Numbered from the stretch's first letter, positions 670-4,476 are shown. The stretch: 4,660 nt of DNA from a virus (IMGVR_UViG_2695420699_000005), one strand, 5' to 3'. Made by a program: numbers and translations. Notes: generated by a model not told the origin, from the sequence alone.

Positions 670-1029
670 ATGCTCATAGATTTGGTTTTACCTTACCCGC
701 CGACGGTGAACACTTACTGGCGACGCCGTGGCAGCACATATTTTATCTCGGAGGAGGGAAAGCGTTATCGCCGGGCTGTGGCGCTTATTGTTCGCCAGCA
801 GCGGCTGAAATTAAGCCTGTCCGGAACGCTGGCGATAAAGGTGATTGCAGAGCCACCGGATAAGCGTCGTCGCGACCTGGACAACATTCTGAAAGCACCG
901 CTGGATGCGCTGACGCATGCGGGAGTGCTCATTGATGACGAGCAGTTTGATGAAATCAATATTGTACGTGGTCAGCCAGTATCTGGTGGACGGCTGGGTG
1001 TGAAGATTTACAAAATTGAGAGTGAGTGA
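670..1029 (+). CDS. rusA: Holliday junction resolvase RusA (crossover junction endodeoxyribonuclease)
   Basis: 119 aa ORF with an AAGAGG Shine-Dalgarno about 7 nt upstream of the ATG. Size and the acidic motif DKRRRDLDNILK match my recollection of E. coli RusA (about 120 aa, DRRRRDLDN catalytic region). Canonical position just upstream of Q. Confidence 0.85.
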   Translation: MLIDLVLPYPPTVNTYWRRRGSTYFISEEGKRYRRAVALIVRQQRLKLSLSGTLAIKVIAEPPDKRRRDLDNILKAPLDALTHAGVLIDDEQFDEINIVRGQPVSGGRLGVKIYKIESE

Positions 1030-1568
1030 GCGTAAATATGATATATCCGGAAATTACAGGCAAAAGCGGCGAACATTTACGCCTGAACACGCTGGAAGCA
1101 GTCTGGATCCAGGGGAAATTACGGATGTGGGGGCGGTGGTCGTATATCGGTGGGGGTAAATCCGGAAATATGTTTAACCGGTTACTGGTTTCGAAAAAGC
1201 TGACGAAAACAGCAGTTAATGAGGTTTTACGCAGAATGAAGAAATCCGGGCTGGAAAAACCGGAACTTGAGGCATTTTTTCGGGATATGACAAGAGGAAA
1301 GCAGAAGAGCTGGTTGTCACATTGTACAGACACAGAGGCGTTGATTATTGATCGCGTTATCAGTGAGGTGCTTGGGGAATATCCCGGGCTAATCAATATT
1401 CTCCGGCAAAGGTACGAAGGACGGGGAATGAGTAAGAGAAAAATGGCAGAATGTTTAAATCGTACTCACCCGGAATGGTGTTTCAGCACATGTGAGAAAC
1501 GTATTGCAGGTTGGTTAGCCGTGGCTGAACACATGCTTTATGTACCTATGCACGATTCATTTCGATAA
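1026..1568 (+). CDS. Q-like late-gene antitermination protein (alternative start ATG at 1038)
   Basis: 180 aa ORF whose GTG start at 1026 overlaps the rusA stop (GTGA), with an ATG alternative at 1038. The gene after rusA in lambdoid phages is Q, and it is followed here by a structured leader and terminator-like hairpins as expected for a Q-acting region. The sequence looks by eye like Q-family proteins but the family was not verified. Confidence 0.6.
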   Translation: MSVNMIYPEITGKSGEHLRLNTLEAVWIQGKLRMWGRWSYIGGGKSGNMFNRLLVSKKLTKTAVNEVLRRMKKSGLEKPELEAFFRDMTRGKQKSWLSHCTDTEALIIDRVISEVLGEYPGLINILRQRYEGRGMSKRKMAECLNRTHPEWCFSTCEKRIAGWLAVAEHMLYVPMHDSFR

Positions 1569-1664
1569 AAAAAGCTTGCTTTTTTACGCAGAAACAGCTT
1601 GAATTCCTGTAAGCTTCGCAAAGCTGTATCGCGAGGCGAAATGCAAGTTTTTTCGCACAAGGAA

Positions 1665-1686
1665 GCCACCGGAAGGTGGTTTTTTT
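1665..1686 (+). terminator. Candidate intrinsic terminator (possible tR'-like target of Q antitermination)
   Basis: 5-bp GC-rich stem CCACC/GGTGG (1666-1670 / 1675-1679, optionally extended by G1665) closing a GGAA tetraloop, followed directly by a run of seven T (1680-1686). Lies about 100 nt downstream of the Q stop codon. Confidence 0.4.
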
Positions 1687-1809
1687 GTGTCCGTAATATA
1701 CAGCAGCGCAATAAATTCGCTGGTGGTTATTAATACCGTTCTTTCAGGTTGCTGGCTTTTTCGACAAGAGTTATTGGTGTGTCACGTTAACCGGAAAAGG
1801 GAAAAAGAC

Positions 1810-2007
1810 ATGCTGAAACAGCAGGATATGACAGAAACCGCCAGAGTGGTGTTTAATGAATTAAGCGTTACCGACCCGGCGACAGTCGGGGAGATTGCGC
1901 AGAATACTTACCTTTCACGCGAACGCTGCCAGTTAATACTGACCCAGCTGGTTATGGCGGGTCTGGCAGACTATCAGTTTGGTTGTTACAGACGCCTTCA
2001 GTCCTGA
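1810..2007 (+). CDS. Small winged-helix / HTH DNA-binding protein (65 aa), hypothetical
   Basis: Internal ATG at 1810 of track ORF 1687..2007, with an AGGG Shine-Dalgarno 8 nt upstream. The stretch TVGEIAQNTYLSRERCQLILTQLVMAGLADY looks like a helix-turn-helix/wing segment. The part of the ORF upstream of 1810 is less protein-like and overlaps the leader hairpins. Confidence 0.5.
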   Translation: MLKQQDMTETARVVFNELSVTDPATVGEIAQNTYLSRERCQLILTQLVMAGLADYQFGCYRRLQS

Positions 2008-2020
2008 AGGCTTTTTTATT
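1994..2020 (+). terminator. Rho-independent terminator overlapping the stop codon of the small wHTH gene
   Basis: 7-bp stem GCCTTCA/TGAAGGC (1994-2000 / 2005-2011) with loop GTCC, followed by TTTTTTATTT (2012-2020). Confidence 0.55.
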
Positions 2021-2034
2021 TGTGGTAAATGGGC

Positions 2035-2065
2035 GGCTGGTGGGTGTAAGGGGCACCCACCAGCC
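2035..2065 (+). repeat. Perfect 12-bp inverted repeat GGCTGGTGGGTG-N7-CACCCACCAGCC; each arm contains a Chi octamer
   Basis: Read directly: 2035-2046 is the exact reverse complement of 2054-2065, with a 7-nt spacer TAAGGGG. GCTGGTGG lies at 2036-2043 and its complement CCACCAGC at 2057-2064. No U-tract follows, so it is not a typical terminator. Confidence 0.85.
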
Positions 2066-2157
2066 ATCTGCTCATGCGTTGGGTTCACAAGCAAACCTCA
2101 GGCCCACTGCTTTGCGCAAAAGCAGAATGAGCCTATCAGAGACAGGCTTAATGATCC

Positions 2158-3207
2158 ATGCTTAATACTGTAAAAATATCCAGTTGTGAGTTAATCAACG
2201 CCGACTGCCTGGAATTTATGCGGTCGTTACCCGAAAATTCTGTTGACCTGATAGTCACGGACCCGCCGTACTTCAAAGTGAAACCCGAGGGCTGGGATAA
2301 CCAGTGGGCGGGTGATGAAGATTACCTGAAGTGGCTGGACCAGTGTCTTGCGCAGTTCTGGCGGGTGCTGAAACCTGCCGGAAGTCTTTACCTGTTCTGT
2401 GGCCATCGTCTGGCATCTGACACCGAAATCATGATGCGTGAGCGGTTTAACGTGCTGAACCATATCATCTGGGCAAAGCCGTCCGGACGCTGGAACGGGT
2501 GCAACAAGGAAAGCCTGCGGGCGTATTTCCCCGCCACAGAGCGCATTCTGTTCGCAGAGCATTATCAGGGGCCGTATCGTCCGAAAGATGCCGGGTATGA
2601 GGCGAAGGGTAGGGCACTGAAACAGCATGTGATGGCCCCGCTGATTGCTTACTTTCGTGATGCGCGCGCTGTCCTGGGGATAACGGCAAAACAGATTGCA
2701 GATGCCACAGGAAAGAAAAACATGGTGTCGCACTGGTTCAGTGCCGGTCAGTGGCAGCTGCCGAACGAAAGCGATTATCTGAAATTACAGGCACTGTTTG
2801 CCCGGGTGGCAGAAGAGAAGCATCAGCGGGGTGAACTGGAAAAGCCCCACCACCAGCTGGTGGATACGTATGCCTCTCTGAACCGACAGTATGCGGAGCT
2901 GCAGAGTGAATATAAGCATCTGCGGCGGTATTTTGGTGTGACGGCGCAGGTGCCGTACACGGATGTGTGGACACATAAACCGGTGCAGTTCTATCCCGGG
3001 AAACATCCGTGCGAAAAACCGGCAGAAATGCTGCAGCAGATAATCAGCGCAAGCAGTCGTCCGGGTGACCTGGTTGCAGATTTTTTTATGGGCTCAGGTT
3101 CAACGGTAAAAGCGGCACTGGCGCTCGGGCGTCGTGCAATTGGCGTTGAGCTGGAGACTGAACGTTTTGAGCAGACAGTCAGGGAAGTTCAGGATTTAAT
3201 CGTTTGA
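2158..3207 (+). CDS. DNA methyltransferase, beta-class (motif IV DPPY N-terminal, motif I FxGSGS C-terminal), probably N6-adenine; orphan, with no adjacent restriction endonuclease
   Basis: 349 aa ORF with VDLIVTDPPYF near the N-terminus (2245-2274) and DFFMGSGSTVKAALALGRRAIGVE near the C-terminus. That motif order (IV then I) is the beta permutation of amino-MTases, and DPPY favours N6-adenine over N4-cytosine (often SPPY). The antisense ORFs inside it are low-complexity and treated as artefacts. Confidence 0.85.
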   Translation: MLNTVKISSCELINADCLEFMRSLPENSVDLIVTDPPYFKVKPEGWDNQWAGDEDYLKWLDQCLAQFWRVLKPAGSLYLFCGHRLASDTEIMMRERFNVLNHIIWAKPSGRWNGCNKESLRAYFPATERILFAEHYQGPYRPKDAGYEAKGRALKQHVMAPLIAYFRDARAVLGITAKQIADATGKKNMVSHWFSAGQWQLPNESDYLKLQALFARVAEEKHQRGELEKPHHQLVDTYASLNRQYAELQSEYKHLRRYFGVTAQVPYTDVWTHKPVQFYPGKHPCEKPAEMLQQIISASSRPGDLVADFFMGSGSTVKAALALGRRAIGVELETERFEQTVREVQDLIV

Positions 3208-3218
3208 AACGGATGAGA

Positions 3219-3247
3219 TTGCAGAATTAATTTCGCACCATTATTAT
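3219..3247 (+). promoter_or_regulatory. Candidate sigma70 promoter for the tRNA cluster
   Basis: TTGCAG (3219-3224), 17-nt spacer, TATTAT (3242-3247), which would start transcription a few nt before the tRNA 5' end at 3257. The -35 is weak; pattern match only. Confidence 0.3.
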
Positions 3248-3256
3248 TCTGGTCCC

Positions 3257-3332
3257 GGCCCTTTAGCTCAGTGGTGAGAGCGAGCGACTCATAATCGCCA
3301 GGTCGCTGGTTCAAATCCAGCAAGGGCCACCA
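3257..3332 (+). tRNA. ileZ: tRNA-Ile2-like (anticodon CAU, ileX/ileZ type; formally could read as tRNA-Met)
   Basis: 76 nt with acceptor stem GGCCCTT/AAGGGCC, D-arm AGCTCAGTGGTGAGAGC, anticodon loop CTCATAA, T-loop TTCAAAT, discriminator A and encoded CCA. Near-identical by recollection to E. coli ileX (tRNA-Ile LAU). A phage tRNA-Ile of this type next to a tRNA-Arg is the arrangement known from Stx-type lambdoid phages. Confidence 0.9.
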
Positions 3333-3339
3333 TCACATA

Positions 3340-3419
3340 CCGCCATTAGCTTATCAGGAAGAGCAGACGACACCATAACAGGGTTGTTGGTGCGGGGGCG
3401 GGTCCCCGATGGCGGTCCA
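3340..3419 (+). tRNA. tRNA-like element, non-canonical (possible pseudo-tRNA or argN-position remnant)
   Basis: Perfect 7-bp acceptor-type pairing CCGCCAT (3340-3346) with ATGGCGG (3409-3415), then T and CCA (3416-3419). Plausible D-arm GCTT-ATCAGGAA-GAGC and a 5-bp GC stem CGGGG/CCCCG directly abutting the 3' acceptor strand. However the T-loop is a non-consensus 6 nt (GCGGGT) and no canonical anticodon stem-loop could be drawn. Confidence 0.35.
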
Positions 3420-3432
3420 TTATCGGTATTCT

Positions 3433-3509
3433 GCGTTGTTAGCTCAGCCGGACAGAGCAATTGCCTTCTAAGCAATCGGTCACTGGTTCGACTCCACTAC
3501 AACGCGCCA
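3433..3509 (+). tRNA. argO: tRNA-Arg (anticodon UCU, reads AGA)
   Basis: 77 nt with acceptor GCGTTGT/ACAACGC, D-arm AGCTCAGCCGGACAGAGC, anticodon stem-loop ATTGC-CTTCTAA-GCAAT (anticodon TCT), T-loop TTCGACT, discriminator G and encoded CCA. One C-C mismatch in the T-stem. Resembles E. coli argU. Confidence 0.85.
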
Positions 3510-3522
3510 CACTTATTTTCCA

Positions 3523-3546
3523 GGCTCGCTTCGGCGGGCCTTTTTT
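3523..3546 (+). terminator. Rho-independent terminator downstream of the tRNA cluster
   Basis: 7-bp stem GGCTCGC/GCGGGCC (one G-U pair) with a UUCG tetraloop (3530-3533), followed by TTTTTT (3541-3546). Confidence 0.6.
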
Positions 3547-3678
3547 GTATCTGCGCCACGCCCGGTGCATATCAACCACAGAGCCTTTCGGGGGTGAGCT
3601 TACGGAGTGGTCAGTGTGACTTTCTCTGTGGGCAGATCGCTCCCGGGCGTTGGCTCACCCACCCAAAGGAACGTCACG

Positions 3679-4111
3679 ATGTTTGGTATTTTTGGTAAAA
3701 AAAGCCCGCAGAGCGGCAACGGAAATTAAAAAGTTTGAAAAACGCGATCTGGCACAGGTGGTGATTAACGCCGCATACCTGGTGGCCTGTGCAGATGGTG
3801 AATGTGAGGCTTCCTAGAAAGCGAAGATCGAACAGGTACTGCGTAATCAGCCTGCGCTGTCCGCGTTTACGTCAGAAATTAATGCGATTAGCGCAACCAT
3901 TATCGGTCAGCTGGATACGAACTTTAAAATTGGTCGTCGTGCGGCGTTACGTGAGATCGAGGATGTGAAACACGATACGCGTGAAGCGGAAGATGTGCTG
4001 GATGTGGCGGTGGCCATTGCGGAGGCAGACGGCGAAATTGAGCCGGAAGAGCGCAAGGTGCTGGAAGAGATTGCCGGTGTTCTGGGTCTTCGTCTGGAGA
4101 ATCACCTGTGA
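3679..4111 (+). pseudogene. TerB-like (tellurite-resistance TerB family) gene disrupted by a frameshift in an A7 run and an in-frame amber codon
   Basis: ATG at 3679 with an AGGA Shine-Dalgarno 8 nt upstream reads MFGIFGKK then stops after 16 codons. Shifting +1 at the A7 run (3697-3703) continues as ARRAATEIKKFEKRDLAQVVINAAYLVACADGECEAS, hits TAG at 3815-3817, then continues KAKIEQVLRNQPALSAF...VAIAEADGEIEPEERKVLEEIAGVLGLRLENHL to TGA at 4109-4111. The composition is strongly protein-like and the ADGE...EE...L pattern resembles TerB-type domains, which I recall being annotated at this position in enterobacterial prophages. Confidence 0.5.
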
Positions 4112-4275
4112 CGGTAAAACTGCGCCTGACTGTGGCTGCACTCCTGCTGTTTCTGGTGGTGATGGTGGATTTCACCAGCAGAATCATGTCGGTGCTGGCG
4201 GATGGGGTGCTGGTCTGCGGCATTGTGGTATTGCTGTGGCCGGTGATAAAAAGAAACAGCCTGCATAATGCTTGA
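4108..4275 (+). CDS. Small hydrophobic membrane protein (about 55 aa, two predicted TM helices), translationally coupled to the TerB-like frame
   Basis: GTG start at 4108 overlaps the TerB-frame stop (GTGA). Translation VTVKLRLTVAALLLFLVVMVDFTSRIMSVLADGVLVCGIVVLLWPVIKRNSLHNA has two hydrophobic segments and ends at TGA 4273-4275. Track ORF 3981..4268 is in another frame and is W/R-rich and non-protein-like. Not in the ORF track under this frame; start codon uncertain (internal ATG alternatives exist). Confidence 0.4.
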   Translation: MTVKLRLTVAALLLFLVVMVDFTSRIMSVLADGVLVCGIVVLLWPVIKRNSLHNA

Positions 4276-4476
4276 TTTTTTTGTTTGCTGTTTATTAAAA
4301 ACACTTCTGCATGGTGAATCCCCCTGTGCGGAGGGGCAATCAGCGAGTAGGTATATGGGATAATCGCGGATTCAGGTGCTGGTACTGAATTCACCGGGAG
4401 GCACCCGGCACCATGCTTTGCCACAAAAGTGTTATTTCTGTTTTTCTCAAACTATCATCGTTATCCCTTTATTTCC

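Follow-up and report, generated by a model that had tools for sequence, protein, structure and literature searches.

Based on a computational analysis of a 4,660-nucleotide stretch of viral DNA (IMGVR_UViG_2695420699_000005), hereafter the window, we propose that the open reading frame (ORF) at 2158..3207 encodes a non-specific prophage N6-adenine methyltransferase of the M.EcoGII family, and that it very probably serves as the first sizeable late-operon gene of a lambdoid prophage, produced in dependence on the antiterminator Q and providing broad anti-restriction. Directly upstream, the gene is accompanied by a structured leader RNA and a small winged-helix gene. All features of the window described here lie on the + strand.

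The ORF begins with ATG, specifies 349 aa and was assigned from the ORF call and profile matches. Pfam N6_N4_Mtase (PF01555) covers aa 29-340 with E=3.6e-44 and 151.8 bits, at a cut-off of 26.7 bits, and the PADLOC model MTase_II (PDLC03265) spans the whole protein (E=2.5e-162). Motif IV (DPPY, aa 35-38, nt 2260-2271) is located N-terminal to motif I (FFMGSG, of the form FxGxG, aa 309-314, nt 3082-3099), with the recognition domain in-between, i.e. the beta-class order, and neither motif varies among the protein and 26 aligned homologues. M.BceJIV, M.RsrI, CcrM and M.MboIIA are the nearest solved structures, both by sequence (E 1e-24 to 1e-15) and by predicted fold; they share the motif order and, as predicted, the catalytic Rossmann domain with the window protein, whereas they are only ~20% identical to it, sequence-specific and equipped with unrelated recognition domains. 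An AlphaFold2 (AF2) model built from 27 close homologues is poor (its predicted score in the local distance difference test, pLDDT, averaging 64.8) and is taken as weak support; the 45 PDB entries that match it best nevertheless belong without exception to the beta-class or Mod methyltransferases. In the window protein, helices are predicted at 145-173, 177-184, 190-194, 204-223 and 232-255. The ratio of non-synonymous to synonymous changes (dN/dS) is 0.05-0.14 against homologues and 0.09-0.14 against the closest ones, which identifies 2158-3207 as a real gene under purifying selection and excludes a chance ORF. A preliminary description, made from the window sequence alone, had claimed a complete beta-class DPPY methyltransferase with motif IV ahead of motif I, and an intact beta-class DNA amino-methyltransferase gene is indeed confirmed: the profiles match a DNA methyltransferase family, and no non-DNA family is the best match.

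In a pairwise comparison, 329 of 349 residues are identical between the window protein and M.EcoGII (~94%), without gaps and at equal length, using a reference read by optical character recognition (OCR) from Supplementary Table S1 of PMC11551740, in which three evident reading errors were corrected. The ~20 substitutions are distributed over the catalytic domain (9), the recognition domain (5, aa 160-237) and the linkers (6), with no insertions or deletions in the helix-turn-helix (HTH) recognition domain or the charged linkers, and with nearly unchanged K+R and D+E counts. The enzyme of phage 1720a-02, named a close relative by Murray et al. (PMC5778455), is identical to the window protein at 330 of 348 positions (95%), and the reconstructed ancestor SUPREM, reported to be non-site-specific (PMC11551740), is ~70% identical to both M.EcoGII and the window protein. 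The likeness to M.EcoGII and M.EcoGI extends to the beta-class order, the central HTH recognition region, the charged linker, the prophage-borne location and the orphan state, and sequence comparison places the window enzyme in the M.EcoGI/M.EcoGII clade of prophage beta-class N6-adenine methyltransferases. A kinship to low-specificity prophage methylases that are silent in lysogens, left open in the preliminary description, is thus borne out.

M.EcoGII, a 349-aa beta-class prophage enzyme of E. coli O104:H4 C227-11, methylates adenine whatever the context, up to 99% in vitro (PMC5778455). Its paralogue M.EcoGI, which shares 333 of 349 residues with it, is likewise non-specific (PMC5778455), and both enzymes are silent in the lysogen and deleterious when expressed constitutively (PMC5778455; review PMC12707154). 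Homologues from O111 Shiga toxin-producing E. coli, with 92-94% similarity, are catalogued as 'nonspecific', and the methylomes show no extra motif (PMC6602927). Non-specific activity, silence in the lysogen and toxicity would be carried over to the window enzyme from this literature on near-identical proteins. The exact window protein is present on 594 public contigs as 'site-specific DNA-methyltransferase [Escherichia coli]', a misleading label for which non-specific adenine methylase would be the correct replacement; the public 90%-identity cluster holding it comprises 4845 sequences, and relatives were confirmed at 227 places in a species-representative genome set. M.EcoGII itself has been characterised, is sold as a reagent and is widely used. 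The methyltransferase gene is of an already known, well-characterised kind, and the window gene alone adds little; the exact allele is already in databases. One 386-aa homologue (P0001) contains an internal tandem duplication of ~37 residues (YKHLRRYFGVT.QVPYTDVWTHKPVQ.YPGKHPC), being either an assembly artefact or real.

The methyltransferase is located between Q and two tRNA genes, as stated in the preliminary description. The gene at 1026..1568 encodes a Q-like late antiterminator of the DUF1133 type (180 aa), recognized by Pfam (DUF1133, E=6e-111; Phage_antitermQ, 34.5 bits at a cut-off of 26) and by PHROG 753 'anti-termination protein Q-like' (E=1.1e-74). At 1655..1690, ~90-120 nt past the Q stop codon, a putative tR' can be read off the sequence, consisting of an A-tract, a GC hairpin (CCACC-GGAA-GGTGG) and a 7-U run; the minimum free energy fold has 1655-1690 in a single hairpin, with z=-4.8 for the region 1569-1700. 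The late promoter PR' we infer to lie at ~1575-1650. A terminator scan detects another terminator-like hairpin (GCCTTCAG-TCCT-GAAGGC) with a T-run at 1994..2017, which overlaps the winged-helix ORF's stop codon; across genera, this hairpin keeps its position with differing stems (e.g. GCCTCC/GGAGG, GCTGCC/GGCAG and GCCCAC/GTGGGC). In 1400-3800, a scan yields no sigma-70-like promoter, with 1.8 expected. PR' is a constitutive promoter whose transcription ends at tR' in lysogens (PMC7547250). The terminators, the lack of a promoter-like site, the position after Q and the published behaviour of PR' and tR' together support Q-dependent expression only after induction, as the likely mode of control.

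We propose that the system would operate as follows. In the lysogen, transcription from the late promoter would end at tR' (~1655-1690) and leakage at the second terminator (1994-2017), so that the toxic methylase is presumably left unmade. Upon induction, Q-modified RNA polymerase would pass both terminators, giving a late transcript on which the 65-aa winged-helix gene is followed by the structured leader and this in turn by the methyltransferase. Before replicating phage DNA is packaged, the methylase may then modify a large part of its adenines, and the packaged progeny genomes would resist the many type I, II and III restriction systems that are blocked by N6-methyladenine (m6A). An anti-restriction role has been proposed by Murray et al. 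and in a 2025 review (PMC5778455, PMC12707154). Protection of progeny DNA, as well as a regulatory role of the leader or of the winged-helix protein, are plausible in this scheme.

Several points weigh against this proposal. Belonging to the family is insufficient as proof of non-specificity, and the wider sequence cluster includes the site-specific M.PflMI, which lacks the charged linker (PMC11551740). The M.EcoGII reference stems from OCR, and the identity is therefore given as ~94%, good to ~1%; the corrected sequence is without an exact match in the protein collection and without an identical phage record. Neither PR' nor a Q-utilisation site was located, and the terminators are predictions. 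Partial decay of the prophage is possible, given an in-frame stop in the downstream TerB gene and insertion sequence (IS) elements in close relatives. No published direct test of phage escaping restriction through this enzyme was found, and M.EcoGII-methylated DNA is a substrate for methylation-dependent nucleases (bioRxiv 10.1101/2023.06.07.544091), so that hypermethylation would be costly, too.

The arrangement around the methyltransferase is conserved well beyond the window. A survey of gene positions covered 80 loci from other species, with Escherichia albertii at one end of the range and Yersinia, Xenorhabdus and Ewingella at the other. Among same-strand ORFs of at least 100 aa, the first one upstream encodes a Q-like antiterminator in ~48 of 58 related loci, distributed over four PHROG families. 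The nearest downstream ORF usually encodes a holin or endolysin. The methyltransferase is co-oriented with Q and the lysis genes, and a 98%-identical E. coli prophage continues downstream with holin, lysozyme, Rz1, terminase, portal and head genes. In a refinement of the 'cargo slot' of the preliminary description, the methyltransferase is not variable cargo but a conserved late-operon module found after four Q families across Enterobacterales. In a Rosenbergiella prophage (L048, 2174-4642), an 823-aa ORF matches PHROGs of two kinds, restriction endonuclease and DNA methyltransferase; it is placed directly upstream of the cassette, ends ~320 nt before the methyltransferase start and has the look of an inserted defence moron.

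The suggestion that the gene occupies the slot in which Shiga toxin (Stx) phages carry their toxin genes likewise needs correction. Stx2 phages have the same methyltransferase, the enzymes of 1720a-02 and Stx2_EH2201 being 95-96% identical to the window protein at the amino-acid level, and in the Stx2a phage Stx2_EH2201 Q is followed by a 198-bp ORF, the methyltransferase and three tRNAs, after which comes stx2AB. As stx2AB is placed after the tRNAs, the methyltransferase belongs to the backbone common to Stx phages, outside the toxin slot, and in the window that slot is held by a TerB pseudogene, followed by a DUF3927 gene. Directly after Q, the Stx2 phages carry the same cassette as the window, made up of the small ORF, terminator, leader, methyltransferase and tRNAs, while they differ in their Q and tR' module and in a third tRNA; their proteins moreover end in ...DLVSQNG (352 aa), as compared to ...DLIV (349 aa) in the window. 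Homology between the window and Stx2_EH2201 begins at ~1717, just past the hairpin and U-run at 1655-1690, the Q genes being unrelated, and a differently sequenced hairpin with a T-run is found at the equivalent place in the Stx2 phage (L002 5500-5600). It is this homology edge after the hairpin, in conjunction with the differing Q genes, that leads us to assign 1655-1690 as tR'. Q, PR' and tR' look like a unit that is exchanged jointly, with a recombination boundary at ~1717.

The region between the second terminator and the methyltransferase start (2029..2157) contains a conserved structured 5' leader of ~125 nt, as determined from an alignment of 38 loci using RNAalifold. P0 (2030-2034 with 2102-2106, UGGGC/GCCCA) closes a three-way junction that holds the 12-bp hairpin P1 (2035-2046 with 2054-2065) and the junction helix P2 (2067-2072 with 2090-2095), and a further hairpin, P3 (~2107-2125), follows the junction. 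Next to P3 comes the start region ...UGAUCCAUG, from which a classical Shine-Dalgarno is absent. The leader is ~77% identical at a divergence where synonymous sites are saturated. Compensatory changes occur in 9 pairs of P1, one P2 column pair is populated by CG:23, UA:6, AU:5 and UG:3, and 93.7% of the leader cells are paired, compared to 30-40% when the partners are slid. Pairs changed on both sides number 14, against 5.0+-1.5 in shuffles, with 0 of 500 shuffles reaching 14, and the window sequence folded alone gives z=-4.8.

In 53 of 83 sources, a covariance model (R1) built from this alignment hits the leader a single time per locus, invariably flush against the methyltransferase start, with no hit elsewhere in 845 kb; it also matches every viral contig tested as well as phage 1720a-02. 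A pattern of the motif core retrieves 120 IMG/VR contigs, and the methyltransferase is directly downstream in all 118 that can be assessed, the other two ending too early for its presence to be judged. In Xenorhabdus and Photorhabdus loci (L050-L081), the winged-helix ORF and the methyltransferase are kept, while the leader is shorter and missed by R1; similarity is there seen only in the start, which consists of GAAAUG plus a hairpin. Rfam 15 returns no + strand match to the leader, the best hit being P26 on the opposite strand with 24.3 bits at a gathering score of 36, and no description of the leader was found in the literature. The published account of M.EcoGII mentions neither a leader RNA nor an upstream winged-helix gene (PMC5778455). 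These alignments strongly support the leader as an RNA element that accompanies this methyltransferase family and apparently has gone undescribed.

We also considered the leader as coding sequence, as the window contains the frame ATG-GGC-GGC-TGG-TGG-GTG-TAA (MGGWWV) across P0 and P1. This was rejected, since in other genera the peptide is rewritten or extended by the compensatory stem changes and the open frames vary among loci; the conservation is hence at the RNA level. Two alternative pairings, AUGGGCGG/CUGCUCAU (2029-2036 with 2068-2075) and the P2 loop GUUCA with the conserved UGAUC right before the AUG (2083-2087 with 2152-2156), are each pairable in 96-97% of the sequences with no double-sided changes; they may possibly represent switch states, against which column 65 covaries with its P2 partner. 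The candidate helices P4a and P4b beside the start codon are 86-90% paired with almost no covariation, and are thus weakly supported.

Upstream of the leader, the ORF at 1810..2007 encodes a 65-aa stand-alone winged-helix protein, matching PHROG 331 (E=1.9e-37) and named 'TrmB family transcriptional regulator' by NCBI, with Pfam TrmB, DprA_WH and MarR giving sub-threshold matches only. The AF2 model (pLDDT 89) adopts the H-H-H-beta-beta topology of a winged helix, and its Foldseek neighbours (E~1e-3) are winged-helix domains of MarR and IclR regulators, O-methyltransferases, SelB and Z-alpha. Across Enterobacterales, the ORF keeps a nearly constant distance to the methyltransferase start, lying 283-355 nt ahead of it in 58 of 81 genome loci; 109 of the 120 IMG/VR viral contigs have it upstream of the methyltransferase as well, and its identity falls to 38-50% in Rosenbergiella, Xenorhabdus and Photorhabdus. 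The protein could be a regulator or a partner of the methyltransferase; a description of the gene was not found in the literature.

More tentatively, and at somewhat below even chance, the winged-helix gene, terminator and leader could form a conserved cassette with the methyltransferase as its effector, in which the leader gates translation of the toxic, genome-wide methylase, representing an undescribed class of cis-regulatory RNA. The leader would then be either a protein-binding operator with the winged-helix protein as its partner, comparable to Com and mom, or a metabolite sensor, for which S-adenosylmethionine (SAM) or S-adenosylhomocysteine (SAH) would be obvious candidates. The Mom protein of phage Mu carries out a late, toxic, anti-restriction DNA modification that is silent in lysogens, and its gene is preceded by the small com gene and a structured leader. 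The window cassette has a similar layout, with a small protein gene and a structured leader ahead of a late, toxic enzyme that modifies DNA. However, there is no sequence relationship: Com is a zinc-finger protein and Mom is not a SAM methyltransferase, whereas the small protein of the window is a winged helix and the enzyme a SAM methyltransferase. The comparison, for which Mom is also cited in a review (PMC12707154), may hence be used as a lead for how the cassette might be controlled. The leader RNA and the winged-helix gene provide a testable handle on the natural control of M.EcoGII-type enzymes, and Stx2 phages place the cassette DNA directly upstream of the toxin genes. If the cassette indeed functions in this manner, the leader would be in the path of toxin transcription, with the cassette between PR' and stx2AB in these phages.

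Among the alternatives to a Q-dependent anti-restriction enzyme, an intact and functionally dead passenger, residing in a cryptic prophage that never reaches late transcription, survives best, and is nevertheless quite unlikely. In its favour, M.EcoGII was placed on a 'cryptic prophage' by Murray et al. (PMC5778455), a pseudogene (TerB) lies downstream, and IS421, IS481, IS3 and IS66 insertions are found in this region of close relatives. Conversely, no damage is seen in the ORF, its motifs, the leader or the winged-helix gene, the dN/dS against the closest homologues given above speaks for maintained function, and the lysis, terminase, portal and head genes are kept in the 98%-identical prophage.

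We regard it as very unlikely that the enzyme is a sequence-specific orphan methyltransferase, expressed in the lysogen as an epigenetic regulator of host or prophage genes. The RefSeq/NCBI name would suggest so, yet it is a generic pipeline label. M.PflMI in the wider cluster is site-specific, and the target-recognition region (aa 160-237) of the window protein differs from that of M.EcoGII at 5 positions; against this, the window protein is 94% identical to and colinear with M.EcoGII, including the charged linker missing in M.PflMI (PMC11551740), and both the equally diverged M.EcoGI and the ~70%-identical ancestors are non-specific (PMC5778455, PMC11551740). Single-molecule real-time (SMRT) methylomes of strains bearing homologues are without an extra motif (PMC6602927, PMC5778455). 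Expression in the lysogen is moreover difficult to reconcile with a gene that is preceded by two terminator-like hairpins and by no promoter-like site, and the fixed late-operon backbone after four Q families supports a lytic-cycle role over lysogen epigenetics.

A role on RNA, in which phage or host RNAs such as the neighbouring tRNAs, rRNA or the leader itself are methylated in lytic growth in order to tune translation, is highly improbable. M.EcoGII acts in vitro on single-stranded RNA as well as on RNA:DNA hybrids (PMC5778455), but works ~90-fold faster on DNA than on RNA (Suppl. Table S3, PMC11551740). Similarly, a different methyltransferase of Stx phages targets 16S rRNA (PMC10810198), but this is an MT-A70 enzyme with DPPW and thus of a different family. 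The structured leader and tRNA genes flank the methyltransferase in Escherichia, but the tRNAs are present beside it in Escherichia-type loci only. The rRNA enzyme, M.EcoPA8orf6770P/PNB-2 (PMC10810198), is similar to the window enzyme in being a Stx-type prophage methyltransferase that was annotated as a DNA adenine methylase and has a small partner protein; as a match it was rejected, as it combines MT-A70 with DPPW, while DPPY is present here and N6_N4_Mtase alone matches.

Finally, a restriction-modification pair, in which this enzyme would do the modifying and the upstream DUF968 protein (HNH-like, at 64-657 and extending past the 5' edge) would be the nuclease, can hardly be entertained and was rejected on position and inconsistent co-occurrence: PHROG 96 'HNH endonuclease' (E=8e-96) and a sub-threshold Pfam HNHc_6 match that protein, and DUF968 homologues are found upstream in many related loci, but DUF968 lies across Q in the early nin-type region beside RusA, ~1.5 to 5 kb from the methyltransferase, is missing from many methyltransferase loci and is matched by no PADLOC defence model, and for a methylase that lacks sequence specificity, a cognate restriction enzyme would have no meaning. 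The methyltransferase is the sole match to the PADLOC defence models. A restriction endonuclease gene was found neither in the window nor, for the 98%-identical E. coli prophage, in the 12 kb to each side, and the methyltransferase is therefore an orphan; the preliminary description was right in this respect, and the wider locus likewise contains no adjacent cognate endonuclease.

The remaining features of the window are as follows. The order upstream of the methyltransferase is the 3' part of the DUF968/HNH-like gene (1-657, truncated at the window start and bearing a Cys/His HNH-like motif), RusA and the DUF1133 antiterminator. The window allele differs from M.EcoGII in having a DUF1133 antiterminator as its Q-type neighbour. 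The DUF968 gene is part of a nin-type region with RusA, separate from the methyltransferase. Downstream, a tRNA with anticodon CAT (3257..3332), assigned as Met by ARAGORN and as tRNA-Ile in its RefSeq homologue, is followed by tRNA-Arg (UCU; 3433..3509, tRNA search) and directly thereafter by a terminator-like hairpin (3522-3541, or 3522..3551 with its T-run; terminator scan). Both tRNAs accompany the methyltransferase in Escherichia-type loci only. The RefSeq tRNA-Ile label for the CAT-anticodon homologue denotes the lysidine type, which reads AUA; the methyltransferase gene uses 4 AUA, 0 AGA and 2 AGG codons. The TerB-family pseudogene (3683-4111) has its in-frame stop at codon 45, and the DUF3927 gene (4108-4275) is of a small moron type and matches PHROG 1470 'TciB-like inhibition of cell division or resistance to colicin'. 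An STnc100 small RNA (4280-4452) is a full-length Rfam match with 101.5 bits at a gathering score of 47.

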